From the NCBI GenBank assembly GCA_030693425.1, contig JAUYAM010000002.1, positions 81,151-145,150 of the forward strand: a stretch of 64,000 nucleotides of DNA, given 5' to 3'. Positions 10,259 to 31,863 of this stretch are shown here, one piece after another. Numbering within the stretch: position 1 is the first letter of the stretch; each line of letters opens with the position of its first letter. The notes under the pieces are model-generated. The model was not told the origin of the DNA. It made no database searches and saw nothing but the letters and a program-made list of their open reading frames with translations. The DNA is from a bacterium. GTDB lineage: Bacteria; Patescibacteriota; Minisyncoccia; Minisyncoccales; GWA2-46-15. The translations under genes were made by a program, and so were the position numbers.

Positions 10259-11470
10259 TTATCCTTCAGAAGTTAGATTTTTAACTAGGGGAAGAATTTT
10301 CAGGTTTTTGACTTGGCCGAGATTTCCCTTGAGACAGCCGGATTCTGTGAATTTGGCGCCTGGATTGTGTTTTTTCGGCAAGCCCCAGATTAAAAGCGGG
10401 ATCGGTCCTTTGGCGTGGGTCTTGGTTTGGCAGGAAGTGGCGTGGTCTGCAGTAATAACGAGCAGGGTATGCTTTAAATCTTTGAAAATTTTTAGTTCTT
10501 TGTCAACTTTTTCAATGAATTTTTTCTTGCCTAAAAAGTCACCGTTCTCGGCCAGGAGATCTGCGCCTTTGACGTGGCAGAAAACAAAGTCGTATTTTTT
10601 CAGGGCGTTTTTGGCGGCGTAAAACTTGTTTTTGAGATACGCCGAGGAAAAAGGATCCCCTTGCTTCTCTTTAATTATAGCCATTCCTAGGAATTTGGCT
10701 ATGCCTCGGTACAGCGCCCCCAAAGAAAGGCAGCCGGATTTCAGCCCCCACTTTTTTTGGAAACTTTCAACGTTTTTAAGTTTGCCCGCTCCTCTTAACA
10801 AGATGAAATTAGCCGGCATTTTTCCTTGCTTTTGCCTTTTCAAATTGAGAGGATGGTTTTCCAAAATCGGGTTTGCGGTTTTGAGAAACTCGTTGACAAC
10901 CCGGGCGGTAAAGCAAGCTTTGTCATTGTTTTTGCCCAGAGGCAGGCAGGGCCTGGTTTTCTTGATGAATTTTTCATCGGTGTCAGAAATTCTTTCTGAC
11001 AATCCCCTGCCTCGCAAAATCACGGCTAGGCGGTGGCCGTAGACCGGCTTGATTAAGAACTTCACTCCTTTAATTTTCAAGCCGTTCAGGGATTCAGCCA
11101 GAACTTTTGCTTCGCCGCTTTGTATCCGGCCGGCCCGGCGGTCAAGCACCAAACCGTTTTTATCAATGGTGGCAAGATTTCCCCGCAAAACAATGTCTTT
11201 GGGCAAAAGCTTGACGCCGCAGCCAATCGCTTCCAAAACGCCGCGGCCTGGCAGGAATTTTTTCGGGTCGTAGCCAAAAAGGGCAAAATGGACTTCTTCA
11301 GAATCAGGCAGTTTGCCTAAGAACAGAGGTTTGAAAAAAGCCAAAAGCCCGTTTCGGGCAAAACAATCAAGGTTTATTCGCCGCGCCGCTTCCAGCGGCG
11401 TCTTATTTCCCAGGGCCGGAATTTTATCGTCCGGCAGACCGTCAATCACCAAAAAGAGAATTTTTTTCAT
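10259..11470 (-). CDS. apgM: 2,3-bisphosphoglycerate-independent phosphoglycerate mutase, archaeal type
   Basis: 403 aa. N-terminal ILFLVIDGLPD and C-terminal ITADHATS metalloenzyme motifs typical of ApgM. Confidence 0.8.
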   Translation of the reverse strand: MKKILFLVIDGLPDDKIPALGNKTPLEAARRINLDCFARNGLLAFFKPLFLGKLPDSEEVHFALFGYDPKKFLPGRGVLEAIGCGVKLLPKDIVLRGNLATIDKNGLVLDRRAGRIQSGEAKVLAESLNGLKIKGVKFLIKPVYGHRLAVILRGRGLSERISDTDEKFIKKTRPCLPLGKNNDKACFTARVVNEFLKTANPILENHPLNLKRQKQGKMPANFILLRGAGKLKNVESFQKKWGLKSGCLSLGALYRGIAKFLGMAIIKEKQGDPFSSAYLKNKFYAAKNALKKYDFVFCHVKGADLLAENGDFLGKKKFIEKVDKELKIFKDLKHTLLVITADHATSCQTKTHAKGPIPLLIWGLPKKHNPGAKFTESGCLKGNLGQVKNLKILPLVKNLTSEG

Positions 11471-13083
11471 GACAGCGGCAGTTCAACGTAAAACGTCGCG
11501 CCTTTGCCCTCGCCCTCAGACTCGGCCCAAATCTTGCCCCGGTGCGCTTTGACGATTTCTTTGGCGATGTAGAGGCCGAGGCCGGTGCCGAGGGTGTTTC
11601 TTAATTTAGGATCGCGGCTAAATTGATTGAAAATCGTCCCGATGATTTCCGGACGAATGCCGACTCCGGAATCTTTGACCTCAACAACGGCCTTGTCTCC
11701 GGTTTTTGTTCTCTCGATTTTTACTTTCACTTCACCTTCGGGAGTATATTTAATGGCGTTGTCAACCAGGTTTTGGATCACCTGTCTTAATCTTTGTTCG
11801 TCGGCTTTCAGATCGATTGTGATCTCATTAGTTTGCAGTCCCAGCTCTAAACCCTTCTGTTGGCCAACGATTTTGTATTCTTCAAAGACGCTTTTGGCCA
11901 AAGCAACTAAATTGATGGTTTTGAATTCATAGTCCATTCTGTCTTCCTCGATCTTTCTTAAATCCAGGAAGTCGTCAACCAACTTGATCAGTCTTCGGGA
12001 GTTTTCTTTGATTCCCCAGACTGCCTTGCTGACGCCGCCATTGATCTGGCCATAGCTGCCTTCGGATATTAAATCGGCATAGCCATTGATGACGGTCAAA
12101 GGTCCTTTTATTTGGTGAGAGGCGAAAGACAGAAATTGCGATTTGAGTTCGTCTAATTTTTCCAGCCGCGCATTGGTGGTTTCCAGTTCGGCGGTCAATT
12201 TTTCCAATCTTTCTCTCTGCTCGACTTCGCGCAGGACGCCGCGAATTAGAAGAATACCAAACGTAAGAACAAAAATAAAAATCGAGCTTCGATAAATAAC
12301 TAACCCTAAATCTTGAGCAAAAATCACCTCGGAAAAAGTGACTACCGAGAGCAAAAACACTAATATCGCCGTTCCCGCCACTCGGATGTTAAAAAGCTTG
12401 TGCCTTAAAATCGCATAGGAAGTGAAAATAACAAACGGAAAAGTAAAAACGGCGCCAAAAGGAACAAACTTAGGATTATTGAAAAAGGCTGGAAGTACGA
12501 AGTTTAGAGGCAAAATAAGAGCAAATGTTATTGCCACACCAATTAATAAAAGTAAGAATTTTCTTTTATCTTGACCAGAAGCTTTTAGTGTTTTTCGTAA
12601 GAGAATCCAAAAACTGGATAAGATTAAACCGAATACGGTTAAGCCAAAAAAAACTATACCGGCTTCTGCTTTTAATGTTAAGATTTGACCTTCTTTTGAA
12701 ACAGTTTCGACCCCAGAAAATACGAACGGTGTAAGTGTAAGTAAAGAAACAGTTACAACCACGGGAATTAGCATTACGGTATACCAACGATGAAACTTCA
12801 GCCTCTCATTTGGAAAAACATAGAGTAGTTGAAAAATCATAAACGAGTGCCATATTCCCAAGAAGATCTCGATCCGCAGAAACCAGAAAGCAAGATTGAG
12901 ATCAACAATCCTATAACTCATGAGGTTAAAAAATCCCCAAAAGGCAGTCAGAATCGAAAAAACGAAGAATGTTTTATTTGTTATGCTCTTCGGGTTATTT
13001 AAAAGAACGCTAAAGCCAAGCACTACCGTAGACGCAATAGCTATCCCCACAGACAATAGATCTAGATTAGATAACACATTCAT
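11467..13083 (-). CDS. sensor histidine kinase with multi-TM N-terminal domain
   Basis: About 9 predicted TM helices, a coiled coil, HisKA (FASHQIKGPL) and HATPase_c (GTGLGLYIAKEIVKAHRG). The 4-nt overlap with apgM suggests co-transcription. Confidence 0.85.
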   Translation of the reverse strand: MNVLSNLDLLSVGIAIASTVVLGFSVLLNNPKSITNKTFFVFSILTAFWGFFNLMSYRIVDLNLAFWFLRIEIFLGIWHSFMIFQLLYVFPNERLKFHRWYTVMLIPVVVTVSLLTLTPFVFSGVETVSKEGQILTLKAEAGIVFFGLTVFGLILSSFWILLRKTLKASGQDKRKFLLLLIGVAITFALILPLNFVLPAFFNNPKFVPFGAVFTFPFVIFTSYAILRHKLFNIRVAGTAILVFLLSVVTFSEVIFAQDLGLVIYRSSIFIFVLTFGILLIRGVLREVEQRERLEKLTAELETTNARLEKLDELKSQFLSFASHQIKGPLTVINGYADLISEGSYGQINGGVSKAVWGIKENSRRLIKLVDDFLDLRKIEEDRMDYEFKTINLVALAKSVFEEYKIVGQQKGLELGLQTNEITIDLKADEQRLRQVIQNLVDNAIKYTPEGEVKVKIERTKTGDKAVVEVKDSGVGIRPEIIGTIFNQFSRDPKLRNTLGTGLGLYIAKEIVKAHRGKIWAESEGEGKGATFYVELPLS

Positions 13084-13127
13084 AAGATTAAAGTAATAAG
13101 TGTTCAGGAAGACTAATACGATTCTAA

Positions 13128-14132
13128 TTAACCGTTAATTAATGAATCTAGATTTAAATAATATCTTCCTGATGGTACCAGACAATTCGTCGCAATCTGC
13201 CTAGCAAAATAACAAAGCATTGCTCCCCGTAAAAACGAGGATTCGCTTGTTTGAGGAATGCCAACTAACCCCTTTCCCACTAAGTCAAAGGATTGTCTCA
13301 GTCTCTCGGTTAAAAATTCTGCGCCCATAAAGTCGCGCGCCAACATAACTCTTTCTTGCATGGGCGTAGTATCAACTAAAGCAGATACTTTATTTATAAC
13401 GTCCTCTTTCAAATAACCATTTAGTAATGGTAAATCCGGCTCCAAGTCAAAACGTTCAACGTCAATTATCAAACCGGGCCCATTGCCGGTAACCATTAAC
13501 ACTGGGATTTTATAATACTTGGCCCTTTCTCTAATTTTGATTTTTAATGGCAGATTATCCATTTCCTCGATCAATAAATCAATTCTTGGTTGAGTTAAGA
13601 ACCGGTCAGTATTGTCTTCGGATATCCCCTTGTCAAAAATTTCTATATCAATAAAAGGGTCAATTTCATAGGCTTGACGGGCCGACAGTACCGCTTTATT
13701 AACACCCAAATCACCCAAACTGGCCCTGAACCTGTTTAAGTTGGATAATTCTAAAACATCATTATCAGCAAATTTCATTTTTTCTGCTCCGCCTTCAAGA
13801 ATAATACAAAGAGCGCCTGGATTGCCCACATTTAAACCGGCAATTCCGATTGTTTGGCGAGAGAATTTTTCCTGTTCTTCATCGGTTATCAAGTTCTTAT
13901 TGCGCGAAAGCCTTAATAGACGATAATCTTCTTTGTTCACAATGCGGACTAATGCTCGATTCCACGGATAATAAACCCAGACATCGATTAGTTCGCTCGA
14001 AACCATCTTTTTTATTTTACTTAACTCCTTTATTTGATCGTCCAAAAAATCAACCACTCTGACATTGCTGTCTTGCTTCAACTTTTCTATCCTTTCTTTA
14101 TCTGTTATAGGATTAAGTATTTCTGGTTGCAT
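13128..14132 (-). CDS. ThiF/E1-like adenylyltransferase-fold protein (resembles the N-terminal half of Rv1355c/MoeY-type proteins)
   Basis: Degenerate Rossmann loop IGIAGLNVGN followed by ELSNLNRF, as in ThiF/MoeB/E1 enzymes. Also a WVYYPW motif. Family assignment is from memory. Confidence 0.6.
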   Translation of the reverse strand: MQPEILNPITDKERIEKLKQDSNVRVVDFLDDQIKELSKIKKMVSSELIDVWVYYPWNRALVRIVNKEDYRLLRLSRNKNLITDEEQEKFSRQTIGIAGLNVGNPGALCIILEGGAEKMKFADNDVLELSNLNRFRASLGDLGVNKAVLSARQAYEIDPFIDIEIFDKGISEDNTDRFLTQPRIDLLIEEMDNLPLKIKIRERAKYYKIPVLMVTGNGPGLIIDVERFDLEPDLPLLNGYLKEDVINKVSALVDTTPMQERVMLARDFMGAEFLTERLRQSFDLVGKGLVGIPQTSESSFLRGAMLCYFARQIATNCLVPSGRYYLNLDSLING

Positions 14133-14140
14133 AGCATTAA

Positions 14141-15169
14141 TTAAGAAATTACTTTTTTTGTTAATTCATGTCTTGGTGTTGCTTGGTGCAATAAATCAAC
14201 TTTTCCCACAACGAATAGGAATTGCGGTATTTGGTCGGTGCCAACAACTTTCTTAATCTCACTTTGTAGATATCCCATTTCCACCGCTGCCACGAAAATA
14301 GAAGTCTGCCAACCAAAACTATTAAATTCTAGCATAAGCCTTTCGGCTAATAGGCCTACCTTAAGCCAAGTGTTTTGATTGTCTTTGGTTGCCGTAATTA
14401 CAGTAACCAGCGGCGCCGAACTCAAGCTTTTGTAATTTAATTTAGACAATAAACCACCCAGATTGAACCACTTAACCAAAGTTGGCAACACAAAAGACAA
14501 CAACAATGGCATTCTCAGAGCATAACCGGGCAAGCCATCTTTGTTTTTCGTTAAACTGTGGTGCATCCACCGCGACATCTCCCTACGAAAAGCGGGGCGG
14601 CGATAAGCAATCTTTAACCCCTCGACGGTTAGCCTAGACAACTTAATTATCTTGTCTTTATCCGTTACCCAGTGCACATTTATCCCTTCAACTAAGTAAT
14701 GCTGTGTTGCTGACGATATAAGATTGATCAGATTGGTTGGTACCGGTTCTGACGAAAACAAACCACGAGCATTTATTCTTTTGGTGATAGTATCAAGAAT
14801 TCTTTTATATTCATCATTTCTCGCGCCCGTATATTTTTTAAAGCGTATAGCGGCCAGTTGTTCCTTATCTTCAAACGGACCATAACTAATAGAGTCAAAA
14901 ATATTAAAATATGTAGCAGCTAAAATTAAGTTTTCTATGGCGCAGCCAATACTGATATGCAGATCTCTGGTTTTAGGATCAGCTTCCGGCAATAGTAATT
15001 TCGGATCATAATATATTTGGCATTCCGGCGCTTTTATCTTAAATAACCAAGGTTGACTATTATGGGTAGATGGCGCCAAAATAGCATAACTTAAAGCAAA
15101 TTTTATATGCTCCTGCAGATCGCCATTTCTAGGGAATTCTTCCGGATTGATTAATCTAATGTCTTGCAC
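14141..15169 (-). CDS. Acg-family nitroreductase-fold FMN-binding protein
   Basis: 342 aa, double-lobed size. APSTHNSQPW motif and a C-terminal ATPR motif, as I recall for M. tuberculosis Acg-like proteins. Confidence 0.65.
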   Translation of the reverse strand: MQDIRLINPEEFPRNGDLQEHIKFALSYAILAPSTHNSQPWLFKIKAPECQIYYDPKLLLPEADPKTRDLHISIGCAIENLILAATYFNIFDSISYGPFEDKEQLAAIRFKKYTGARNDEYKRILDTITKRINARGLFSSEPVPTNLINLISSATQHYLVEGINVHWVTDKDKIIKLSRLTVEGLKIAYRRPAFRREMSRWMHHSLTKNKDGLPGYALRMPLLLSFVLPTLVKWFNLGGLLSKLNYKSLSSAPLVTVITATKDNQNTWLKVGLLAERLMLEFNSFGWQTSIFVAAVEMGYLQSEIKKVVGTDQIPQFLFVVGKVDLLHQATPRHELTKKVIS

Positions 15170-15191: not shown

Positions 15192-16688
15192 TCATTTCTT
15201 TACCCACCTTTGTTTAATTCCCAGTTTAAAATATTTTGGATCTTCAGCCGGCCAAAACTGCAAGCGCGGCAAGGCGCGTTTGCCGAGGAATTTATGGAGC
15301 TCGCGATATTCAGAATTCTTGAGTTGCAACTGTTCAACAATGACGCTAAGAGTCGCCTGCTTGATAGCCCGAGGCACGATGTCATTGCGGGATTTACGCA
15401 TTTCCAAATGAATCAGGAGATATTGATTTTGCTTGCTGTTAAACCGCGTTTCTAAGGTAAATTTCCCTGTTAAATAGGCGCTTAATGGCTTTTTAAGCAA
15501 CGCTTCCCGTATTGGCTCGGGATAAACCTGCAGGCCGTAGAGATTGGTAGAAAAGTCGGCTCGTTCGTAGACATAAACAAAAGGAAGTTCGTGCCAAAAT
15601 TTTTCTATCCCCGCCTTTTTTGCCTCCTTTTTCAAGTCTACTCCTAATTCGCTTAACTTCTTTGTAAGTTCCCGGAAAGAATAAACCCCGCCGTGATCTC
15701 CTAAAGCGTATCTTATGAGCGGCATCGTGTTGTTGCCGCTTACCAAGAGATCATCACCTTCGGCGTCAAACGAAATAAAAGAGGGTATGTATTGGCCTAA
15801 AGTCGGGGTCTTTTGAATTTTTTTGAAGATTGCTTCAAACAACTTTTGATTTTTGGCGCAAAGCCGGCGAATCAAAATTGCCAGGGGCGTCTCAAAAGCC
15901 ATGGCTCCGAGGTCGGCGGTGCCGTAAATATTCATCGTATCAATGAAAGAATTTCTCATATTAACCGCTCTGGAGACATATTCCCGGAAATCCTCGGTAA
16001 AAACTTCTGCTGCAAAAAGCAAGCGGACGCGGAATTTCCGCCAATCAATGCCGCGGGACGGCGCTTCGTCAATAATGTCTTTGATGAGCGGCGGATAACC
16101 GACTAAAATAATATTTTTGTATGATCTTCCAAGGTCCTTCAGCGACTTAAAGATTTCCTCTTTGTTAATGCCCGGGGTGATTAAAGAAACATTATAGCCC
16201 CTCTCCTGAAGCAAGTGGAATGCCTGATAAGTAATCAGGCCGCCGATCCAAACACCCATGCCGAAACAGACAATCACCAGTACTGGTTCTTCTTTTTCGT
16301 ACTGGCCCTGGAGATAAAATAATTCGTGGATAACCGAAGTTTGTAAATCTAAGTCGAAAGATCGATGAAAATAAAAAGGGGTACCGGTGGCTCCGGAAGT
16401 AGAGGTAAAAACAAGCGGTTTATCAATACGCCCGTCAATGGTCAATTCAGATAAAGGATATCTGCGCAGATAATTTTTCTTATCAATCGCCGGCAATAAC
16501 CGAAGATCAGCAACGGTTTTAATATTTTCTGGCTTAACTTTATTATTCCGTAAAAAATCCTGATAAGCAGGAACTTGTCCACTAAGCAAACGAAAGAGAT
16601 TTAAAACACTCTCGCCTCTAATTTTTTCCCAAAACAAACTCTCCCGCGTCTTAATTTGTTGAATAATCCGACTGGCTTTTGTCTTCAT
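15192..16688 (-). CDS. PaaK/CapK/F390-synthetase-like adenylate-forming enzyme
   Basis: 498 aa. TSTSGATGTPFYF (AMP-binding P-loop equivalent of SSGTTGKP) preceded by LPAIDKKNYLRRYP, typical of phenylacetate-CoA ligase-like proteins. Confidence 0.65.
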   Translation of the reverse strand: MKTKASRIIQQIKTRESLFWEKIRGESVLNLFRLLSGQVPAYQDFLRNNKVKPENIKTVADLRLLPAIDKKNYLRRYPLSELTIDGRIDKPLVFTSTSGATGTPFYFHRSFDLDLQTSVIHELFYLQGQYEKEEPVLVIVCFGMGVWIGGLITYQAFHLLQERGYNVSLITPGINKEEIFKSLKDLGRSYKNIILVGYPPLIKDIIDEAPSRGIDWRKFRVRLLFAAEVFTEDFREYVSRAVNMRNSFIDTMNIYGTADLGAMAFETPLAILIRRLCAKNQKLFEAIFKKIQKTPTLGQYIPSFISFDAEGDDLLVSGNNTMPLIRYALGDHGGVYSFRELTKKLSELGVDLKKEAKKAGIEKFWHELPFVYVYERADFSTNLYGLQVYPEPIREALLKKPLSAYLTGKFTLETRFNSKQNQYLLIHLEMRKSRNDIVPRAIKQATLSVIVEQLQLKNSEYRELHKFLGKRALPRLQFWPAEDPKYFKLGIKQRWVKK

Positions 16689-16712: not shown

Positions 16713-18083
16713 ATGGTGGCAACAACAAAACAATTTAATATATTGGCCACAATAAGGCGGGAATTAACAGGACAGTTGTTAGCAAGAGTGGATAAAGGGG
16801 CAAATCCTTTAAGAGCTAATGCTTTGATTTGGAGTGAGTATGCAGATAGGTGTAATAAAGAAGGCTTGCCAGTTATTGGCGCGAATTTAAGTTTAGGCAA
16901 TATTGATGCGAGCAGCTTTGATCGTGAGCCGGGACATTGGCATTTGTCTCAAGCGTTGGGAATTCACCCTGATGGTGAAATATATAGGCAAATTAGTCTG
17001 ACTAAAGAAAAGTTAAATAGAGAGTATTATTTTTCAGGTAGATCGCTGGCGAAATATGGCGATTTTACCGGTATAGAAGAAGCGAGACTGGCTTTTTCAA
17101 AATATTTAGCCCAGTGGGGCGGAGTGATGATCAGTAAAGAAGAAACGTTTTTTTCTAGTGGCGGAACTTCAGATGCGGCTCAAAGAGAAATGGGAGCTTT
17201 GGTTTTATGGTTAGATAAGAAGCAACTAGAGGCTAACTTTTTAACCACTGTCCCTGGATACACGCCGGTAATTAATATGGCTAGAAGAGCGGGGATGCGA
17301 GTGATAACTTTAGAATGTGGCGAGACGGATAGTTATTTTTTACAGGCGGACCAGGCGCGTCAGATAGTACAAGATCAAAACATAGGAGTATTTTATATCG
17401 TACCGATTAACAATCCGACTGGGACGATGATTCCGGCGGATCAGCTAAGTCGGGTAGTAAAGCAAAGCTATGAAGCAAATACGGCAATAATTTTTTTAGT
17501 GGATTTGGCTTATATTACTACGGTGCCTGAAGAACAGGCGCGCGCGATGTTGGCAGTATTCAATAACAAAGAGATTTTAAGACAGACCGTGTTTTTAACC
17601 TCTTTGTCTAAATCTCACGCAATTCCCGGGCAGCGGCTGGGAGCTTGTCATACAATAGTAGCCGGAATGAACGAGTGTTTGCGCGCGGCCACCGAGGCCG
17701 GCAATCCCTGTCATTCAGCCGCGGCAATGCTGGAAGCGGTAGCGGTGCTGGAAAATGTTAGCAAGGAGGCAGTGCGGCAAACTGCGGCAGTGTATAGGCG
17801 GCGTAGAGAGGTAACAGTTGATGTTTTAAGAGACATTAATCGATTAACTGATAGAGAATTGTTTATTGATTTAGACCAGTTGAAAACTGACGGGGCGTTG
17901 TATGTTTATCCGCGACTAGGAAAAAGTAAAACTAGTTTGGATCTTTTTGTTCAGACTGGAATGTGGGGAATTGGGGGAAGATTTTTTGGGGCGGGTGACA
18001 ATGATCAACGAGTGCGCTTGGCAATAGGAGTTAATTCCAGTTTGGAAATTCAAGGCATTCCTTCACAACTAGATCTGTCTTAA
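16713..18083 (+). CDS. class I/II PLP-dependent aminotransferase
   Basis: INNPTGT and SLSKSHAIPGQRLG (PLP-lysine) motifs. Start trimmed from 16656 to MVATTKQ to remove overlap with the divergent gene. Confidence 0.8.
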   Translation: MVATTKQFNILATIRRELTGQLLARVDKGANPLRANALIWSEYADRCNKEGLPVIGANLSLGNIDASSFDREPGHWHLSQALGIHPDGEIYRQISLTKEKLNREYYFSGRSLAKYGDFTGIEEARLAFSKYLAQWGGVMISKEETFFSSGGTSDAAQREMGALVLWLDKKQLEANFLTTVPGYTPVINMARRAGMRVITLECGETDSYFLQADQARQIVQDQNIGVFYIVPINNPTGTMIPADQLSRVVKQSYEANTAIIFLVDLAYITTVPEEQARAMLAVFNNKEILRQTVFLTSLSKSHAIPGQRLGACHTIVAGMNECLRAATEAGNPCHSAAAMLEAVAVLENVSKEAVRQTAAVYRRRREVTVDVLRDINRLTDRELFIDLDQLKTDGALYVYPRLGKSKTSLDLFVQTGMWGIGGRFFGAGDNDQRVRLAIGVNSSLEIQGIPSQLDLS

Positions 18084-18155
18084 CCAATAGATAATTTTTC
18101 TGCGCCGCGGGCTTCTCGGATATTTTGAAAACCGTCTTTTTTCAAGAATTGCACC
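17983..18155. repeat. 173-bp direct repeat, copy 1 (aminotransferase 3' end plus antisense pyrD 3'-end fragment)
   Basis: Hand alignment to 25129..25301 gives 7 mismatches. This copy supplies the functional aminotransferase 3' end. Confidence 0.9.
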
Positions 18156-18210
18156 TGAAAAAGGCACCTGAAAAAGGTACCTGGTCCCTTTTCCCCTGGT
18201 CCCTTTTCCC
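18152..18210. repeat. junction tandem repeats (2x13 nt and 2x15 nt)
   Basis: cacctgaaaaagg x2, then ctggtcccttttccc x2. The two pairs are imperfect reverse complements of each other. They sit exactly where pyrD homology ends. Confidence 0.85.
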
Positions 18211-18224
18211 CTTGTCAATCCTAA

Positions 18225-18370
18225 TCATATTGGTAGTTCAATATAAAAAGAGGTGCCTTTGTTTTTTCCGGCCGATTCAACTCTGATATCTCCGCCGTGG
18301 AGCTTGACGAATTTCTGGGCGATGTAAAGGCCCAACCCGACTCCTTCGGTCCAGTAGCGGTCGCCGGCGT
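18225..18370 (-). pseudogene. orphan 3' fragment of sensor histidine kinase (fragment A)
   Basis: Encodes ...DRYWTEGVGLGLYIAQKFVKLHGGDIRVESAGKNKGTSFYIELPI (HATPase_c tail only). The upstream part of the 86-aa ORF is unrelated sequence. Confidence 0.85.
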
Positions 18371-18623
18371 TGCTGGTGCTGGTTGGTCTTACCATGACTG
18401 AATTTGAGACACTCGGGTCGAGGTCTAAAAATGTGAATATCTCAGTTTTTATAGTTTTGTTCGGAAAATGAGACAAATGAGACATGAAAAGACGCGTTCC
18501 GCTTTACCGGAACCAGATTATGCAGGGATTGAGAGCGTGGCAAGCGTTGAAAAACGAAACAATTGCTATTCTATAACATCTACCCGTCCTTCTACTCACT
18601 ATATTTAAGGCAATATCCTATCT

Positions 18624-19265
18624 CTAGGACGTTTCAATAGAGTCCATGAAGGTTTCTTCTTTGAACTTAATTAAAGCCTTATCCATTTTTTCCATGCGCT
18701 CTTTCGCAATATTTTTGCTACTTTTAAAAAATAATTCTCCGCTTTTTCTAATTTTGTCCTGTCTGTCAAAACTAAAATAATAATCAATCGCTTCTTTGAT
18801 ATCTTGATTATGTTTTCCAGCGTAAACCGCAAGTCTCCAAAAATTAAGCATTCCTATCTCGTCCAAATTATCCGCATCGTGGACTATTTTACTTTCAGTT
18901 AAATCAAATTTCTTATTTGAAAAATCTACTATCAATTTTATGACATAATCTTTATCGTTTTCATTTTTTATGAAGGGCACAATAAACTCCTCAAAAAGCA
19001 CAATGTTATTCTTATCGTGTTCGTCTAAAAAAAGTCTTTTTTCTAAAGCCAGTTTTTTATTTTTTCCAATATCGTGAAATAGAGACAAAATAATAGTACA
19101 ACCTATGCTTACTTTTTCTTGTAATACCTCAGATTTAATTATTCTTTCAGATAATTTTAATACCCTTAAAGGATGGTAATAGCGATAGTTTTTACCATCT
19201 TTTTCATCCTCAGAGTTATAATTGATTTCCTTAAAAAAGTTTAGTACCTGTTCTTTATTTTCCAT
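18624..19265 (-). CDS. HD-domain phosphohydrolase
   Basis: H...HD...D pattern: YHPLRV, LFHDIGK, HDADNLDEIG. AT-rich. Confidence 0.7.
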   Translation of the reverse strand: MENKEQVLNFFKEINYNSEDEKDGKNYRYYHPLRVLKLSERIIKSEVLQEKVSIGCTIILSLFHDIGKNKKLALEKRLFLDEHDKNNIVLFEEFIVPFIKNENDKDYVIKLIVDFSNKKFDLTESKIVHDADNLDEIGMLNFWRLAVYAGKHNQDIKEAIDYYFSFDRQDKIRKSGELFFKSSKNIAKERMEKMDKALIKFKEETFMDSIETS

Positions 19266-19308
19266 GTTTTTATGTTTAAAATAGGTGGCTAAAAGGATGG
19301 GAGAGGCT

Positions 19309-19902: not shown

Positions 19903-19943
19903 CGGAAGCCTCCTTCCTTCTCTCGAGCCTATGTTCTAGACAA

Positions 19944-22872: not shown

Positions 22873-22975
22873 AAGGTTACTTGTAATAATCTTGTTTTTC
22901 CAACATTAAAGCAGTTTTTAGTAGCAAACTCGAGCTTTGCAATTTCTGGCCTCCGACGCCAAAGACCACTTCTAT

Positions 22976-23299: not shown

Positions 23300-23362
23300 T
23301 TTGATCTTATGAAAATAACCCTGTAAATCTAAAATTTTTATGATTATCTATAAAGAGTTTAA

Positions 23363-24079
23363 CTAGAAATATCCATCTATTTCTTTGTCTAGTCGTTTAA
23401 AAAAATCTGCCATAAATTTATGCCTATCTATCGCCATTTTTTTACCTTCTTCTGTAAGCATTCTGTCTTTAATTTTACAAAGCTTAACACTAAATTCTCT
23501 ATAGGCAGTATCCTCTTTCGTATATGGCTTGGTTTTTTCCAGATCAATATCTTTATTATGAAGTCTGGCTCCGATTTCCCCAGAAAACAGAAAAGCCCTT
23601 CCTATGCCACAAGCTCCAATGGCATCAAGTTTATCCGCATCAAATAAGATTTGGGCCTCTCTACTCTGCGGGAAATTATTGCTTCTAAATCTGTGCGTTT
23701 TTATACAAGAAATAATTTTTTCTATTTTTTCTTGATCAATGTTATGTTTTTCTAAAAGTTCTTTGGCCAAAATCGCTCCCTTTTTGGCGTGACAAACCTT
23801 TCCATTTGACTTATATTCTTCTTCTCTGCCTATATCGTGTAAAATCGCGGCCATCCCTAGAACCTCTGTATCTACATTTTCCAAGCTACCTATTTTAATA
23901 CAAAGATTATAAACTCTTAAAGTATGGTCCCAGTTGTGGCTTCCTCTAGAATTTATAAAAAACTTCCTTGCTTCTTTTTTGATTCCCGACCAATCAAGAG
24001 TCAATCCATTCTTCTTATAAATTTTTCCTTTTTGCTGCCCTATTTCTTTGGGACTCCCTTTAAACGTTTTTATTTCCAT
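23363..24079 (-). CDS. HD-domain phosphohydrolase
   Basis: WDHTLRV, AAILHDIGR, FDADKLDAIG. Confidence 0.75.
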   Translation of the reverse strand: MEIKTFKGSPKEIGQQKGKIYKKNGLTLDWSGIKKEARKFFINSRGSHNWDHTLRVYNLCIKIGSLENVDTEVLGMAAILHDIGREEEYKSNGKVCHAKKGAILAKELLEKHNIDQEKIEKIISCIKTHRFRSNNFPQSREAQILFDADKLDAIGACGIGRAFLFSGEIGARLHNKDIDLEKTKPYTKEDTAYREFSVKLCKIKDRMLTEEGKKMAIDRHKFMADFFKRLDKEIDGYF

Positions 24080-24356
24080 ACAAATAAATTAGATTTAGTG
24101 TTTAAATTTATCGCAGAGCTACTCGAGTCACAGCTCTCTCGCGATCACTCGGGTCTGCACGATAAGAAATGGTCGTGGCGGGACACTCGGGTTAAGTGCC
24201 CAGGGTAGCCACATTTTTAAGAACATTATAGGTCTTTTTAGGCGATTTTGCCAGGGTTGAATTATTTCAATTGGCTGGTTTATATTAAACCCATCAGGCA
24301 CTGGGTTACGCACATCCCGAGAGTTCGTACACACTTTCACCTAATTTGTTATAACC

Positions 24357-24922
24357 GTGATATTATTATTAATAATAGATAAGTATTTTTTAATTTTAAT
24401 TTTATTTTACCTAATATTCTTAGGAGCCCTTTTTGAAGCCCCTTGGCTTCCTACAATGAAAAAGAACTTCGATAGAATAGCAAAATTAGCGGGTCTGCAA
24501 CCAGGCATGTTGTTTTATGATCTGGGTAGCGGTAGCGGTGAATTGTTATTTTGCTTATCAAAGAAATATGATGTGAATTGTATCGGGATAGAGATTTCAC
24601 CGCTTCTGTACTTGTATTCAAAAATCAAATCTTTATTTTTTAACAAAGTAAAAATTAGATACGGCAATTTTTACAAATACGATTTATCAAAAGCAGATGC
24701 GGTTTATGTTTTTCTATTCCCAAAAGCTTACTATAGATTAAAAACCAAAATTAGCTCGGGACTAAAAAAGGAGCAAGGGTAATATTATCTTACTGGCCCT
24801 TTGAATACTGGGAACCAACCGAAATAAGCGAAAAAGAAAATTCAGTCACCTATTATTTATATATTGTGCAAAAAGAAAAGGAAGGTTATTTTTTGTCAGT
24901 TAAAGCGGGAAGTTCAATATAA
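24357..24922 (+). pseudogene. TM-anchored class I SAM-dependent methyltransferase, frameshifted at an A6 run
   Basis: Track ORF 24357..24782 (GTG start) has motif I, FYDLGSGSGELL. After the A-run at about 24764-24769 the next frame reads KKGARVILSYWPFEYW, the expected continuation. Confidence 0.55.
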
Positions 24923-25137
24923 AAAGAGGTGCCTTTGTTTTTTCCGGCCGATTCAACTCTGATATCTCCGCCGTGGAGCCTGACGAATTTCTGGGCGATG
25001 TAAAGGCCAAGACCGGCTCCTTCGGTCCAGTATTTTCCGTCGGCCTGGCCTCTGGAAAAGCTTCGGAAAAGCTCTTTTAAGTCTTGTTTACTGATGCCCG
25101 CTCCCGTGTCTTTTATTTCTATGACGACTTTTTGGGG
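24886..25137 (-). pseudogene. orphan 3' fragment of sensor histidine kinase (fragment B), fused to antisense aminotransferase sequence
   Basis: Encodes VVIEIKDTGAGISKQDLKELFRSFSRG...GLGLYIAQKFVRLHGGDIRVESAGKNKGTSFYIELP. The N-terminal MPSALVDHCHPP of the 94-aa ORF is antisense to the repeat copy. Confidence 0.85.
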
Positions 25138-25301
25138 CGGGTGACAATGATCAACGAGTGCGCTTGGCAATAGGAGTTAATTCCAGTTTGGAAATTCAAG
25201 GCATTTCTTCACAATTAGATCTGTCTTAACTAATAGATAATTTTTCTGCGCCTCGGGCTTCTCGGATATTTTGAAAGCCGTCTTTTTTCAAAAGTTGCAC
25301 C
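25129..25301. repeat. 173-bp direct repeat, copy 2 (antisense-orphan aminotransferase 3' fragment plus functional pyrD 3' end)
   Basis: Hand alignment to 17983..18155 gives 7 mismatches. Confidence 0.9.
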
Positions 25302-26356
25302 AAACCGCGATTGATTTCGCTGATGAACTGCGGGCCCTCAAAAATCATTCCGGTAATGAGTTGGACCAGCGAAGCGCCCGCTTTAATTTTTGTATAGGCG
25401 TCAATGGCTGAAAAAATGCCGCCGCAGCCAATAATAATATATTTTCCACCGCTTTTCCGATAAATGAAGCGAATTTGAGCGTTGGACAACTCTTCTGTTG
25501 GCTTTCCGCTAATGCCGCCTTTTTCTGGAACTATCTGATCGCCCATTTTTAACGCGCTTCTATTTTTAGTAAGATTGCCGCAGATAAATCCATGAATGCG
25601 GTGGTTCTCGCATACTCGGAGGATAGCGTCAATCTGTTCTTCGCTTAGATCAGGAGACATTTTTAAAAAGATGGGTTTCTTCGTAGAAACGGCGTCAATT
25701 GCTAAAAGAAGACGGTTGAGTCGATCGGGTTCGGTAAAGGGCTCGCCGCCAAAAGCGTTCGGGCAGCTAATGTTGATGGTAAAGTAATGACCAATATCAA
25801 CAAACTGGCGAAACGCTTTTAGATAATCGTTAATTCCGGCTTCGGTTTCAACCGTGGCTAAACTATTAGTCTTGGCAATACTTGTTCCGAGAGGGATTTT
25901 GAAATTTTTTGAGCGTAACCGGCCAGCTATTTTTTCACATCCTTGATTCTTTAATCCGTAATATACTAGGAGAGAGCGCGATTCTTTCAAACGCCATAAC
26001 CGCGGCTTAGGATTGCCTTCGCACGGTTCACCGGTGATGGATCCTACTTCCGCAAATCCAAACCCAACGCAAGGAAGAATGTCAGTGAGCAAGGCGTCTT
26101 TATCAAAGCCAGCAGCCAATCCCACTGGATTAGGAAAATGTATTCCGAGGAGATTTTGTTCCAGCATCGGATGAGTAAAAGAAAATGACAGCGACGTTGC
26201 CTTTCTTGTAATCGCGCGTTGTCCGAGAAACTTGCCTATCCGCGTCATGGCGTTGTGAACTTCTTCCGGATCGAGGCGAAAATAAATAGGTTTTAATATA
26301 TTGGCGTAAAAAAAGTGAAACAATTTGTTTCGCGCCGCTATCGTCAAATTATTCAT
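25226..26356 (-). CDS. pyrD: dihydroorotate dehydrogenase, class 2 (quinone-type)
   Basis: 376 aa. N-terminal extension typical of class 2, plus GLAAGFDKDA and GCGGIFSAIDAY motifs. Confidence 0.85.
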   Translation of the reverse strand: MNNLTIAARNKLFHFFYANILKPIYFRLDPEEVHNAMTRIGKFLGQRAITRKATSLSFSFTHPMLEQNLLGIHFPNPVGLAAGFDKDALLTDILPCVGFGFAEVGSITGEPCEGNPKPRLWRLKESRSLLVYYGLKNQGCEKIAGRLRSKNFKIPLGTSIAKTNSLATVETEAGINDYLKAFRQFVDIGHYFTINISCPNAFGGEPFTEPDRLNRLLLAIDAVSTKKPIFLKMSPDLSEEQIDAILRVCENHRIHGFICGNLTKNRSALKMGDQIVPEKGGISGKPTEELSNAQIRFIYRKSGGKYIIIGCGGIFSAIDAYTKIKAGASLVQLITGMIFEGPQFISEINRGLVQLLKKDGFQNIREARGAEKLSIS

Positions 26357-26432
26357 AGTCCATTTCTTAGTTTTATTTCTAAAGGCGACTGTCGCCTTAT
26401 AGCAAGAAGAAAATCGTCAGTAAAATAATCGT

Positions 26433-27764
26433 TTAGGGTGAAAACTGGCTGGCGACTCGAGCAAAATCCCAGATTCCCGTCCGATTCGACTCCCCTATTT
26501 TCAAATGGTCCAAGCAATGATTCTCCCTTAGCTTTTTGATGAGATGAGCGGTGTAAGCCGGGGCGCCGGTGGCGCCGGGGGAGTTAAAGTTCAAGACGTG
26601 GAAGGATCTGTGACCGAAAATTTCCAATGCTTCTTTGACGAATTTCCCCTGACGATCAATGACCGGACTGCGAATGCCGGCCGAGCCTTTCTTCGTTAGA
26701 TATTCTGGTTTGACGCCGGGTAAAAACTTCCTGACTCGTCGGACCATTGCTTCCTTAAAAAAAGAACTTTGCCACTCTTCCAGGGCCAAGCGCAGAAACT
26801 CATGATTCATCATCAGTTTGATTTTATTTGCCAGGGGCATTTCAAAAACTTTCTTTAAGCCGGAAAGCGGATTCTCGAAAAATCCTTTATAGGCGTAAGG
26901 GCCCAGAACCGGCACGGCCGTTGGGCCGATCTCAACTTGATCGTCCCAACGGCTGATCCAGTGCGGGTCGAGAAAAGGAAATTCCGAGTGGCGCGGCACC
27001 GAGTAGATATTATGATTGGCCAAACCGGCTCGCGCCGGATCAACGATCCAGTATTCTCCGCGGAAATTTAAGTCGGTTAAATCTCGCGCCACGCCCAGAA
27101 GATGGGCAATTTTTACGGCTTGGCCGCCGGCGCAGTTCAGCACATATTTGGCCGAAAGATTTTTGCCGTTAGCAAGGGCGAGGTCAAGACAGCCGCCGGT
27201 TTTTTTGATTTTTTTAACCTCGCATTCCAGCAAAAATTCAACCCCGTCGTTTTCCGCGTCGCTTCTTAAACTTTTTGTCAATGCGTAAAAATCGGTGGCA
27301 ACGTCCGTTTTGCAGAAAAAAGCTCCTCGGCACTCTATATTCGGCTCCATTTTCTTTGCCTCCGCCGAATCCAGAAGCTCGATTTCCTTTTCGTCCATTC
27401 CGTTCTCCGCCGACCATTTCTGGTATTTCTTGAGGGTCAGCAGATCGGCCTCGTTAAGAGCCACCTCGAGCGTTCCCCTTTTGACCCAGGGGAGCTGTTT
27501 CAGCGAAGCGTATTTTTCCCAGAGCGGAAAAGACAAGAGAGCCGAGCGGGCGAAAATTTTCTTTTTTTCCGGATCGAGGTAAAACGGCCGGTGGACAACT
27601 CCGGTATTACGCTTGGTGGCGTGCAGGCCGGTGTCGTTCTCTTTTTCTATGACGACAATCCCCCCTGTTTCGTAAATGGTTGCCAGCCAATAAGCCAGGG
27701 TTGTTCCCAGAATTCCTCCGCCTACGATCGCCAGATTGTATGTTTTGCTTTTTGGCAGATCCAT
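26433..27764 (-). CDS. FAD-dependent oxidoreductase, L-2-hydroxyglutarate oxidase (LhgO)-like
   Basis: IVGGGILGT dinucleotide fold, with FRGEYW and NFNSPGATGAPA motifs as in the LhgO/DAO family. Confidence 0.6.
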   Translation of the reverse strand: MDLPKSKTYNLAIVGGGILGTTLAYWLATIYETGGIVVIEKENDTGLHATKRNTGVVHRPFYLDPEKKKIFARSALLSFPLWEKYASLKQLPWVKRGTLEVALNEADLLTLKKYQKWSAENGMDEKEIELLDSAEAKKMEPNIECRGAFFCKTDVATDFYALTKSLRSDAENDGVEFLLECEVKKIKKTGGCLDLALANGKNLSAKYVLNCAGGQAVKIAHLLGVARDLTDLNFRGEYWIVDPARAGLANHNIYSVPRHSEFPFLDPHWISRWDDQVEIGPTAVPVLGPYAYKGFFENPLSGLKKVFEMPLANKIKLMMNHEFLRLALEEWQSSFFKEAMVRRVRKFLPGVKPEYLTKKGSAGIRSPVIDRQGKFVKEALEIFGHRSFHVLNFNSPGATGAPAYTAHLIKKLRENHCLDHLKIGESNRTGIWDFARVASQFSP

Positions 27765-27795
27765 TCTTGCTGTTTTTTGGCCCAGTCGGCTCCTC

Positions 27796-30039
27796 TCAGC
27801 GGTCTCGACTTGTTTTGCTTAGGATTAGATTCCCTATTTCATTTTTGTCTGCTGCCATCGGCAGATCAATGTAAAAAGAGGTGCCTTTGTTTTTTCCGGC
27901 TGATTCGGCGCGGATATCGCCGCCGTGGAGCTTGACGAATTTCTGGGCGATGTAAAGGCCCAACCCGGCTCCTTCGGTCCAGTAGCGGTCGCCGGCGTGG
28001 CCTCTAGAAAAGCTTTTGAAAAGGTCTTTGAGGTCTTTTTTGCTGATACCCGCCCCGGTGTCTTTTATTTCAATGACGACTTTTTGGGATAGTCCCCGGC
28101 TTTGACTGGCTTCGACGGTAATGTTTCCCTTTTGGGTGTAGAGGATGGCGTTGTCAATGATAATAATAAGCACCTGCCTGATTTTTTCCTTGTCCATAAG
28201 AATTTGGGGCAACGGCTCTTTCTCCTCTTTGTAGGCTAAAACTAGGTTCTTTCCCTTGGCTTCGGTTTTTAGGGCTTCGATGACGCTGGTAATCAGTTCT
28301 TTGAGCGAGCTCTTTTCCAGGTTTAGTTCGATTCGGCCGGCTTCTATTCTGGAAACTGTTAAAATATCTCCGACCAGCTTTATTAACCTCTCGTTTGTCT
28401 GAAAAACTCTTTGGATAGGCTCTTTCATTCTCCCGGGCATGTTTCCGTAGGTTCCTTCAACGGCCATCGACAAATACCCCTTGATAATACTCAAAGGAGT
28501 TCTTAGTTGGTGCGAAGCAATGGAGATAAACTCCGATTTTGCCTCGTCTAGTTTTTTGAGCTCTTCGTAAGCCTCTTTTAATTCTCTGGTTTGTTCATCA
28601 ACCTTGGCTTGGAGGTTTTTTGACAAGTCTTGAACTTGGGAATAAAGCTTGGCGTTTTGCAGGGCAATCGAGGCCTGATGCGACAGGGCCGTGAGCAGGT
28701 CCAAGTCCTCTTTGGAATAGGAATCTCCGGAAATCTTGTTGCCCAGGACGATGATGCCGATAATTTTATCTTCGATTAAAAGCGGCAGGCAGAGGCTGGC
28801 CTCAATCCTTTTCATGTTTTGCTTCAGCTTTTCGAGATCGGTTTTTTCCGTCATTTTGCTGTCTCTAATGACCAAAGACAATTCCTCATAAACCAAGGCT
28901 CTTTTGGTTTTCTCGAGATATGAGGTTAAGAAATCGTCCCTGACCAAAGAGATGCCGTTTTCCTCTCTGAATCCGATATTCTTTTTGATCTGGTAGTCTC
29001 CGGTTTGAGGATCCCTTAAAAGGATGACCGTTCTGTCTAACTTCATGGTTTCTACCAGGGTGCTGGTGATTAAAGAAGCTAACTGATCAAGGTCTAATAC
29101 TCGGGTCAATTTTCTTCCCATGTTGATGATGACCGTTTGATACGAATAGAATGTGTAATAGAAATATTTTGAAGCCAGGTTTTCAAAAAAACGGTAGACC
29201 GGTTGAAATAAAAGGATGCTTAAAAAAATAATTAATGGTCCTAAAACATTGAAAGTTGCTGGTTGCTCTAATTTGTTATTCAGAATGATTGTCAAAGAAG
29301 CCAGACCGATGACGACAAGGAAGGAAAGAAAATAAACCGCGCTTTTGCCGATGACAAAACGGATATCCATTAGTTGATAGACCATGACGGCGTAAGAAAC
29401 AAAACCGACCATGAAAAGAGTTGCCACCTGGCCAAGCCAATTAAAGCGGAAATCACCGATGGTCGGCAGGAATAAATTAAAGATTGATCCCAGAACAATG
29501 GAAAGGCTGGTCCCCAAGAGCATATACCTGACTTGTGATTTTAGGATCCCATGAGACTTTATATATCTTTTAAAAAGATTCCAAAGAGCCCAGGTGAAAT
29601 AGCTGGAAATGTAGACCGTATAAAGGAGATAAGCTGGTCCCCAAAGAATTTCTTTTTCTTGGCCAAGATGAACTTTTACATCTTTGATAATCATTCCTTT
29701 CAAAGCTACCAAGACGACTACAATAATCATTGGCAAGACAATCAAGAGACATTCTCTTTTTGTGATTTTCCATTCTCCGTGGGGGTAGATAAAGGTAAAA
29801 TATAAGAAAGAGATCGGAATAAGGGTGGCCGAAACATAAAGAATCTGGCACCAAATAACAGAAGTTTCTTGCGGCGAGGATCTGTAGAGAATCATCGAGG
29901 CTATCCAGAGGATGACTGCTCCGATAACAGTGCTCCAAATCAAATTTACTTTTCCTCTTTTGCTTTTAAAATAACTGAAAAATGCCAAAGCAAAATTAGC
30001 AATCAGGACAATTACAAGAATAGTATTTTTCCAGTCCAT
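27796..30039 (-). CDS. sensor histidine kinase (7TM N-terminal domain, GAF-like, HisKA, HATPase_c)
   Basis: 747 aa. About 7 TM helices, HisKA SIASHQLRTPL, HATPase GAGLGLYIAQKFVKLHGGDIRAESAGKNKGTSFYIDLP. This is the intact source-like copy of the repeated 3' segment. Confidence 0.9.
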   Translation of the reverse strand: MDWKNTILVIVLIANFALAFFSYFKSKRGKVNLIWSTVIGAVILWIASMILYRSSPQETSVIWCQILYVSATLIPISFLYFTFIYPHGEWKITKRECLLIVLPMIIVVVLVALKGMIIKDVKVHLGQEKEILWGPAYLLYTVYISSYFTWALWNLFKRYIKSHGILKSQVRYMLLGTSLSIVLGSIFNLFLPTIGDFRFNWLGQVATLFMVGFVSYAVMVYQLMDIRFVIGKSAVYFLSFLVVIGLASLTIILNNKLEQPATFNVLGPLIIFLSILLFQPVYRFFENLASKYFYYTFYSYQTVIINMGRKLTRVLDLDQLASLITSTLVETMKLDRTVILLRDPQTGDYQIKKNIGFREENGISLVRDDFLTSYLEKTKRALVYEELSLVIRDSKMTEKTDLEKLKQNMKRIEASLCLPLLIEDKIIGIIVLGNKISGDSYSKEDLDLLTALSHQASIALQNAKLYSQVQDLSKNLQAKVDEQTRELKEAYEELKKLDEAKSEFISIASHQLRTPLSIIKGYLSMAVEGTYGNMPGRMKEPIQRVFQTNERLIKLVGDILTVSRIEAGRIELNLEKSSLKELITSVIEALKTEAKGKNLVLAYKEEKEPLPQILMDKEKIRQVLIIIIDNAILYTQKGNITVEASQSRGLSQKVVIEIKDTGAGISKKDLKDLFKSFSRGHAGDRYWTEGAGLGLYIAQKFVKLHGGDIRAESAGKNKGTSFYIDLPMAADKNEIGNLILSKTSRDR

Positions 30040-30093
30040 ATTGATTTATATTACCACCAAAAGTTTTGAAAATCAAAAGTGAGCCCTTGTCAG

Positions 30094-31585: not shown

Positions 31586-31726
31586 CTAACATACCAGCGC
31601 GCACAGGGGCAAGGGCGGGAATTCATAATAGAATCGCAGCCAGATCATGCCGGCCGCGATCACCACGATCGCCAAGCCGAAGGCGATCGGCACCACCCTC
31701 GCCGGGAGGGAAAGTTTATTGACCAT
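31586..31726 (-). CDS. small membrane protein (46 aa), below the ORF-track threshold
   Basis: Hand translation: MVNKLSLPARVVPIAFGLAIVVIAAGMIWLRFYYEFPPLPLCALVC. AAGGAGG lies 6 nt upstream of the ATG. Confidence 0.45.
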   Translation of the reverse strand: MVNKLSLPARVVPIAFGLAIVVIAAGMIWLRFYYEFPPLPLCALVC

Positions 31727-31791
31727 CACGCACCTCCTTGTGCTATCTATATTAAATCAGAAAACGTTCAGAAGATCAATTAAAATTTAGT

Positions 31792-31863
31792 CATCGGCAG
31801 TTCAACGTAAAAAGCGGTGCCTTTGTTTTTTCCCGCTGATTCGGCGCGGATATCGCCGCCGTG
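31792..31863 (-). pseudogene. orphan 3' fragment of sensor histidine kinase (fragment D)
   Basis: Encodes HGGDIRAESAGKNKGTAFYVELP. About 5 mismatches over 72 nt to 27856-27927. Shares an exact cggcagttcaacgtaaaa with the 3' end of the kinase at 11467. Confidence 0.8.

Follow-up and report, generated by a model that had tools for sequence, protein, structure and literature searches.

We analysed a 64-kb stretch of DNA (positions 81,151 to 145,150 of contig JAUYAM010000002.1, assembly GCA_030693425.1; hereafter called the window, with coordinates counted from its first nucleotide) from an uncultured bacterium of the Candidate Phyla Radiation (CPR)/Patescibacteria type. In this window the 3' end of a sensor histidine kinase gene, K2, is found again as three orphan tails, designated A, B and D. 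The explanation that we favour, and to which we give about an even chance, is that in A, B and D we see 3' ends of K2-type kinase genes that were displaced or truncated and left as scars when blocks of genes were inserted behind a kinase by an integrase-independent process. The inserted blocks would have come from related or foreign CPR bacteria. The initial annotation had described the kinase tail as a hotspot of recombination or integration that is repeatedly used for gene gain. The recombination part of this proposal is supported by the mosaic structure of the tails, by their position at the borders between gene blocks and by their recurrence elsewhere, whereas an integration hotspot is unproven, and displacement scars behind a conserved anchor gene fit the data better.

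The kinase tails and their mosaic structure

K2 (27796–30039, minus strand) encodes an intact sensor histidine kinase of 747 amino acids with the domains HisKA_7TM, GAF, HisKA and HATPase_c (Pfam). It gave a 100% match to protein P0001 of the NCBI metagenome-assembled genome (MAG), and its tail was used as the reference. The tail region (27856–28088, minus strand) is common to B over the whole span, to A as far as about 28004 and to D as far as 27928. Orphan B (24886–25137, minus strand; 252 nucleotides, nt) is a 5'-truncated kinase tail that starts at about amino acid 652 of K2 and includes the G1 box, and orphan A (18225–18376, minus strand; 152 nt) is likewise 5'-truncated and starts at about amino acid 673; both are located downstream of K2. 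Orphan D (31792–31865, minus strand; 74 nt), which comprises the last 24 or so codons of a K2-type tail and is 94.5% identical to K2, is located upstream of it. With 5' ends at about amino acids 652, 673 and 697 of K2, the three orphans are truncated unequally, and the spread is up to 180 nt.

HisKA and HATPase_c both scored above the Pfam cut-offs in K2 and in a second kinase gene of the window, K1, while A, B and D contain the C-terminal part of HATPase_c only. In A this domain was recognised on an open reading frame (ORF) of 86 amino acids (18225–18485), in which NCBI annotates a shorter "ATP-binding protein" of 56 amino acids (P0179). In B it was recognised (Pfam) on an ORF of 94 amino acids (24886–25170), also annotated as "ATP-binding protein" (P0174), and D lies within an ORF of 39 amino acids (31780–31899). 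A, B and D are therefore gene fragments and not kinases; for the annotation this means that the "ATP-binding proteins" of 94 and 56 amino acids at B and A are fragments and not genes.

A self-comparison of the whole window by BLAST returned the kinase tails plus one 179-nt repeat pair, X/X', and nothing else. The alignments covered 229 nt between B and K2 (86% identity), 145 nt between A and K2 (91.7%), 125 nt between A and B (95.2%) and 73 nt between K2 and D (94.5%), with no indel in any of the copies. The four tails are in direct orientation and, as the initial annotation had it, all on the minus strand, and their 18-mer core, GGTGCCTTTGTTTTTTCC, is present in the window exactly 4 times, where 0.18 would be expected. 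The initial annotation had also counted K1 as a fifth member of the family. K1 (11467–13083, minus strand) encodes a 7TM histidine kinase of 538 amino acids (Pfam) and is a distant paralogue of K2, with 37% amino acid identity over the kinase core and about 67% nucleotide identity over the 73-nt register. Hence K2, A, B and D are real repeats, but the recent family has four members and not five. The reported exact match between D and K1 does exist over 18 nt, but it lies within the conserved FYVELP codons and does not represent a recent copy. Silent cassettes of the kind that serve antigenic variation were considered and rejected, since the copies encode nearly identical peptides.

The tails are mosaics at their variable sites. 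K2 equals A and differs from B at 11 sites (K2 coordinates 27997–27932), and A equals B and differs from K2 and D at 7 sites (27919–27871); the table of variable sites thus shows a K2 tail that resembles A in the former stretch and D in the latter. Orphan A carries 11 K2-like informative sites followed by 8 B-like ones (Fisher p = 1.3e-5 at the best breakpoint). Its 5' 77 nt are K2-like with 1 mismatch, and the next 69 nt are identical to B. These results bear out what had been read from the letters of A, namely an identity with B over about 68 nt, a preceding stretch that follows the kinase at 27.9 kb, and hence a chimera; recombination among the tail copies is borne out with them. Among K2, A and B there is a single haplotype switch, which falls in a 12-nt interval, GCTCCACGGCGG (27920–27931, minus strand), and the homology of D starts within the same interval, at 27928. 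It should be underlined that all switches lie in 27920–27931 but amount to one or two events only. K2, A-like at first and D-like thereafter, and B, diverged at first and A-like thereafter, have the form of the reciprocal products of one crossover, whose parents would have been an A-type tail and a second tail type; alternatively, D may have converted the end of K2.

B and K2 diverge by about 14% overall and by about 20% in the 5' third of B. The synonymous divergence (dS) was 0.44 and the non-synonymous divergence (dN) 0.094, giving a dN/dS of 0.21. This low ratio indicates that most of the difference between B and K2 arose in working kinases under purifying selection, and that B is not a decayed local duplicate. 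The two members of the X/X' pair, in comparison, diverge by 5%, and the unequal values constitute evidence against one duplication in situ.

Outer repeat, novel junctions and gene blocks

Read along the plus strand, a rightward aminotransferase gene is followed by X, a hairpin region r, orphan A, an AT-rich island, orphan B and X', and then by three leftward genes, namely the dihydroorotate dehydrogenase gene (DHODH), a gene for a DAO-type oxidoreductase (DAO) and K2. Beyond K2 come a leftward gene for a protein of 334 amino acids, leftward small ORFs, D and a GC-rich gene pair. A and B do flank the island as direct repeats, as the initial annotation stated, but they are not the outermost ones, since X (17977–18155) and X' (25123–25301) form a second direct repeat outside them, of 179 nt with 95% identity and 9 differences. 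X is where two convergent genes meet: one strand specifies the genuine C-terminus of the aminotransferase, ...FFGAGDNDQRVRLAIGV..., and the opposite strand the final 25 codons of DHODH, with a 4-nt overlap of the stop codons. In X the aminotransferase 3' end (17977–18083) is the working one and the DHODH end (18080–18155) is an orphan; in X' the situation is reversed, with a functional DHODH 3' end (25226–25301) and an orphan 3' fragment of the aminotransferase gene (25123–25229).

Directly after the stop codon of A lies r (18156–18224, minus strand), a nested hairpin with U-runs that is built of tandem repeats of 13–16 nt and folds as RNA with –37.3 kcal/mol (z = –4.1). The kinase from which A came probably had r as its original terminator. 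The orphan ends thus retain what appears to be their native downstream DNA: A leads into the terminator hairpin, and the DHODH fragment in X leads into the real aminotransferase end. At the two novel junctions short stretches are shared, 8 nt (CCCAAAAA) at the X'|B junction, where they are common to both parental sequences, and 5 nt (GGTGC) at the r|X junction. Microhomologies of this kind are typical of illegitimate recombination.

The initial annotation had placed the orphan copies at breaks in base composition, and this was confirmed: A, B and D each lie at a border between blocks of different composition. The island genes have 34% GC, the flanks 42–46% and the window as a whole 44%; among the other blocks, DHODH has 44%, DAO 50%, K2 42%, the gene for the 334-amino-acid protein 52.5% and the zinc-ribbon pair next to D 61%. 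D was likewise correctly described as a separator of two GC-rich blocks, as it stands between the block of small ORFs and the 334-amino-acid gene (50% GC) and the zinc-ribbon pair.

The island between A and B (18377–24885, minus strand; Pfam, and Logan unitig L068, 18310–24940) carries minus-strand genes for HD, cytidylyltransferase, a 79-amino-acid ORF, GT4, a dNK-like protein, epimerase, Tmk and HD, and a single plus-strand gene, which encodes a methyltransferase (all Pfam). It has a terminator-like site of its own at 18513–18496 (terminator scan). Its core operon of GT4, dNK-like, epimerase and Tmk genes is a conserved chromosomal operon in a Shapirobacteria genome (GT4, 53% amino acid identity), and its nearest relatives are in another CPR class. 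The thymidylate kinase gene of the island (19309–19902) has 46% GC compared with 28–35% in its neighbours, and the island itself is therefore a mosaic.

Between the K2 tail and orphan B are the genes for the DAO-type FAD oxidoreductase (26433–27764) and DHODH (25226–26356), which together form a block at 25226–27764 on the minus strand (Pfam, NCBIfam, Logan unitig L001). Members of the K2 family are about 723–730 amino acids long, and K2 extends about 19 amino acids beyond the usual C-terminal end of the family (...ELP plus 1–3 residues), as if its original stop codon had been replaced at the joint with this block. The extension is encoded at 27796–27855, and the K2 stop codon lies 32 nt before the start codon of DAO.

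The GC-rich zinc-ribbon protein pair (32026–33545, plus strand) is divergent from D, lies on its 5' side and is compositionally foreign. In this 61% GC block a minus-strand ORF of 219 amino acids (31933–32592), glycine/leucine-rich and of low complexity, overlaps almost fully with a plus-strand ORF of 218 amino acids (32026–32682), which is rich in Ala, Glu and Lys and has a zinc-ribbon-like CxxC...CxxC motif at its C-terminus. The minus-strand ORF is probably a by-product of the high GC content.

Housekeeping genes are spread over the whole window, which identifies it as a chromosomal stretch, and CPR genomes contain all the closest homologues of K2, DHODH and the GT4 of the island. The window was matched with 100% identity by Logan unitigs of run SRR13727538. 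These unitigs (k = 31) break at the ends of exact repeats, as seen for L001 (25176–27949) and L068 by BLAST and for L069 by coordinate arithmetic (start near 18012); we assume that they probably derive from the same reads as the assembly, and they are no independent proof of the segment order. The longest exact runs between the copies were 69, 48, 30 and 29 nt, which is below the usual Illumina read length; the copies are mutually different, and there is unique sequence at every junction.

It is very improbable that the arrangement is an assembly artefact that fused contigs of different strains or species at a conserved kinase tail, or in which the island is a separate circular molecule. Such an error is conceivable in a short-read MAG whose k = 31 unitigs break at every repeat and whose composition shifts at each copy; across the 69-nt A/B repeat, moreover, the graph equally permits a chromosome free of the island together with a 6.7-kb circle. 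Against this, the copies are truncated at different 5' points, and the unique sequence of each joint must exist in the reads. The 5–8 nt shared at the r|X and X'|B joints are far too short for an assembler to join on, X and X' differ at 9 positions, no exact repeat exceeds 69 nt, and similar structures occur in unrelated assemblies. Nor was any replication or mobilisation gene found in the island (Pfam, PHROGs, NCBIfam), which makes the integrated form more plausible than a circle. The initial annotation had named such an artefact as a possible refutation of its proposal, and the differences between the copies, the unique junctions and the short exact repeats make it unlikely.

Orphan tails in other genomes and the search for a recombinase

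The nearest relative of K2, in L070 (GCA_039739295.1), shows 66% amino acid identity. Synteny with the window is restricted to the 334-amino-acid gene and the kinase and ends inside the kinase tail, downstream of which L070 has an RHS toxin array, a displacement array of the classic kind at the same position. In the region 7355–14843 of L070 the kinase is followed by an RHS/YD-shell toxin gene of 1570 amino acids, and fragments of the core end are repeated (11036–11229 vs 13977–14170, 90%; 11140–11225 vs 12589–12674, 93%).

A DHODH scan of the genome collection (66 loci) gave neither an empty site nor an ancestral junction; none of the loci has an adjacent aminotransferase or DAO gene. The best match to the DHODH of the window, in L002 (JAUYCZ010000028.1), has 88% amino acid identity, and the DHODH gene alone is common to the two. 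Window positions 25240–26358 are 87% identical at the nucleotide level to L002 9999–11117, the similarity being bounded by the gene ends with no flanking synteny. By its extent, this match suggests that a single DHODH gene moved between lineages.

Relatives of K2 were surveyed at 80 metagenome loci with 84 kinase copies, 65 of which are followed by 1 kb or more of sequence. About 3 of these 65 showed orphan tails. L149 has a 93-nt orphan about 0.9 kb downstream of the kinase, with one reverse-strand gene between them; L128 has a decayed orphan about 35 nt past the new stop codon, with a terminator hairpin between them; and L095 has two orphans, one of which is part of a tandem duplication of about 3.9 kb. 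A search for tail-only proteins, in which 17 candidates passed the word filter, led to a further case on an unrelated contig, L157. Orphan tails thus recur in other CPR metagenome contigs, but they are rare, and the difference between about 3/65 and a DHODH control (0/60) is not significant. Three other candidates were rejected as orphan tails: L159 and L163, in which the kinase genes are split by a frameshift or stop, and L160, which is a normal gene at a contig end. The K2-family kinases of L159 (1049–3223) and L163 (1–477) are distributed over two or three ORFs and are either pseudogenes or sequencing errors, from which it follows that not every short "HATPase-only" protein in the databases is an orphan tail. 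Around another K2-family kinase, in L133, there are several families of 80–130 nt repeats with 80–94% identity, mostly intergenic (549–684, 7486–7564 and 16296–16409; 2094–2222/8230–8357; 2269–2362/12248–12340).

L157 (ENA ERZ27247971 k141_1736911, 1–4658) contains four K2-type tails in direct orientation, at about 196–299, 1025–1132, 1651–1757 and 4309–4491, and the same array is present in L158, L161 and L162 from three further metagenome samples. The tails separate an antitoxin+PIN_2 pair, an antitoxin+ParE pair and a radical-SAM/NDK-HD/NUDIX operon. They are saturated at synonymous sites (68–76% nucleotide identity) and have a dN/dS of 0.05–0.13, and three of the four begin at nearly the same codon. 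The best promoter-like sites of the contig were found directly after three tails, and a fourth (TTGACA-N17-TATAAA) was seen by eye after the other one. In every copy the homology among the tails ends about 10–25 nt past the ELP codons. Right after the stop codon of the first L157 tail, at 300–340, there are five tandem units of 7 nt (AGTAAC CAGTAAC GAGTAAT CAGTAAG CGGTAAT); short tandem units directly behind a tail also occur in the window, in r (18156–18224).

With regard to site-specific recombination, no integrase, transposase or other recombinase domain was found in any ORF of the 64-kb window (Pfam, PHROGs, NCBIfam), and no recombinase was found on L157. The unannotated ORFs of the window were included in the PHROGs and NCBIfam searches; they gave no such match, and the idea of a hidden recombinase among them was rejected. 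One encoded elsewhere in the genome is conceivable. The 334-amino-acid protein gave weak, far sub-threshold matches only, and a protein of 498 amino acids resembles CoA ligase. An attC-like structure was also rejected, as the tail DNA folded no better than shuffled sequences (z from –0.97 to +1.56; L157 tails on both strands, A, B and D of the window on the minus strand). The same holds for a phage-borne att copy: the 18-mer core was present in 4 viral contigs, about the number estimated by chance, and none of them has kinase homology. Use of the tail as an integration (att) site, as proposed at the outset, is therefore not supported, given a window that is free of integrases and transposases and tails that have no attC-like fold; further points against it are the unequal 5' ends of the orphans, an outer repeat that is X/X', and the microhomology joints.

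Proposed displacement scars and competing explanations

Under the favoured explanation, the conserved final 100–250 nt of the kinase gene would serve as homology for RecA-type recombination with incoming DNA that bears a kinase tail of its own. The exchange could proceed by a Campbell-type crossover with a circular intermediate or by one-sided homology-facilitated illegitimate recombination, while the remaining joints would be made by microhomology-mediated illegitimate recombination. In each event the kinase would gain a new tail and new downstream genes, and the old tail, truncated at its 5' end, would be pushed downstream. For the window, the history may have begun with the aminotransferase and DHODH genes as convergent neighbours (X). 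A kinase with an A-type tail and terminator r would then have become linked, at GGTGC, to the terminal 76 nt of DHODH, after which the AT-rich island would have arrived behind the kinase, leaving A. Subsequently, a segment of about 3 kb (kinase tail, DAO, DHODH and X'), closed at CCCAAAAA, would have recombined once within GCTCCACGGCGG with the resident tail, giving K2 and B as reciprocal products and a second copy of X. D would be a further truncated tail, upstream, and the source or a relative of the present 3' end of K2. This history fits all the features; the order of events, the circular intermediates and the donor origin of the blocks are what we infer from them.

Comparable processes are known from other bacteria. 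Displacement at rhs loci, which involves no integrase and for which homologous recombination via a circular intermediate is proposed, leaves 3' fragments in strings (Jackson et al. 2009, PMC2935791). As in rhs arrays and orphan cdiA-CT/rhs-CT modules, the window contains an intact gene together with 5'-truncated fragments in the same orientation, with a conserved part of variable length. The inserted DNA differs in GC content, no integrase is present, and homologous recombination through the conserved piece has been proposed. In rhs, however, the conserved piece precedes a variable toxin tip and an immunity gene, and selection acts through toxin/immunity turnover, whereas here it is the very end of a sensor kinase. 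The tails have no variable protein tip and encode near-identical peptides, and the cargo consists of unrelated metabolic, envelope or toxin-antitoxin genes, in the window DAO, DHODH and the nucleotide-sugar genes. Type VI secretion system (T6SS) effector-immunity modules of V. cholerae are sequentially displaced by homology-facilitated illegitimate recombination (PMC5361080), a process first described in Acinetobacter, S. pneumoniae and P. stutzeri (cited in PMC5361080). There, too, a conserved upstream gene is the homologous anchor, the far end is illegitimate and old 3' pieces accumulate downstream, and the window likewise has short microhomologies (8 and 5 nt) at its non-homologous joints. 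It differs in that the anchor use is putative, the host is an uncultured CPR bacterium, and at least one event looks reciprocal (Campbell-type) and not like a one-sided replacement.

The same structure could have a purely internal history, consisting of local duplications that were initiated at the tail and followed by loss or replacement and gene conversion, the tail having no role in the acquisition of DNA. This we regard as rather unlikely. A single unequal exchange between sister chromosomes, mediated by microhomology, would leave exactly the X'|B joint by tandemly duplicating the segment from codon 652 of K2 to the end of X, and the duplication in L095 does start in the last codons of a K2-family kinase. 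The tracts of 69 nt (A = B) and 77 nt (A = K2) also resemble short conversion tracts between nearby repeats, and conversion of K2 by D would explain why the switch point of K2 is the end of D. One duplication would, however, give equal ages, whereas B and K2 differ by about 14% with a dN/dS of 0.21 and X and X' by 5%. Moreover, the blocks between the copies differ in GC (34%, 44–50% and 61%) and hold no remnants of duplicated genes, and the nearest relatives of the island core operon are in another CPR class. Site-specific capture seems unlikely. Here the kinase tail would be the att site of a recombinase acting in trans, and the blocks, which lack a recombinase, would be cassettes mobilisable in cis, each with a copy of the 3' end of the target gene, so that successive integrations stack them between tail fragments. 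Such an architecture exists in prophage e14, which targets the 3' end of icd, brings a replacement end and leaves the fragment icdC (PMC13626634). The window resembles it in that the blocks lie between direct repeats of the target 3' end (A and B around the island, the K2 tail and B around the DAO-DHODH block), with a C-terminal gene fragment at the far end and an intact target gene with a hybrid end. ICESt1/3 and CIMEs at fda behave like e14 at icd. Site-specific capture would also account for the confinement of all haplotype switching to one 12-nt interval in which D starts, for the end of tail homology about 10–25 nt past the ELP codons in every copy, and for the array in L157, where four very diverged tails (dS saturated), three of them with near-equal 5' boundaries, separate small cassettes that include PIN and ParE toxin-antitoxin pairs. 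Elements of the e14/icd type, however, carry a tyrosine recombinase with a fixed core or rely on one. No tyrosine or serine recombinase gene adjoins the repeats in the 64-kb window, and none was found in the searches of L157. Within the window the 5' ends of the orphans are spread over up to 180 nt, the X'|B and r|X joints connect unrelated genes through microhomology, the outer repeat of the island is X/X' and not the tail, and the "insert" between the new and the old tail in L128 is just a terminator hairpin of about 35 nt.

A wider form of this idea, which we consider quite improbable, is that the 3' end of this widespread family of CPR 7TM-GAF kinase genes is a platform for gene capture, on which cassettes carrying a tail of about 100 nt as an "address label" between very different lineages are stacked by a trans recombinase or another targeted mechanism, in an integron-like manner with the end of a protein-coding gene as the site. 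We keep it in view because of the L157 string, whose tails are saturated at synonymous sites yet protein-like, three having a common 5' boundary and all four being followed by a cassette and a strong promoter-like site, and because the single 12-nt switch interval of the window fits it as well. L157 resembles integron arrays in that repeats of about 105 nt stand between small cassettes, toxin-antitoxin pairs among them. The differences are that intI is absent, that the repeats are derived from coding sequence, conserved in sequence and devoid of attC hairpins, and that promoter-like sites directly follow the tails. A cassette-capture site in CPR bacteria would, if real, be of considerably greater interest.

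Several observations weigh against displacement scars as the explanation that we favour. The segment order rests on one short-read assembly. With the nearest kinase at 66% amino acid identity, neither an empty site nor a donor has been seen, and the order of events is a reconstruction. Orphan tails are rare in the K2 family (about 3/65), with no significant excess over the DHODH control (0/60). The L157 tails are too diverged for efficient homologous recombination, and the near-identical start codon of three of them fits a site-specific process better. Finally, the 5' end of D coincides with the switch interval of K2, A and B, which could mean a preferred site of crossover.

Gene gain by CPR bacteria is poorly understood, and reports of conventional mobile elements in them are, to our knowledge, few. 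If the orphan tails are indeed displacement scars, the locus would be a legible record of several integrase-free acquisitions, complete with joints, reciprocal products and displaced gene ends, through which the bacterium would have obtained nucleotide-sugar genes, a gene of pyrimidine synthesis and a GC-rich pair. This reading predicts that such scars will be found in conserved genes beside variable DNA, where they could provide a sequence signature for the mapping of gene flow in MAGs.

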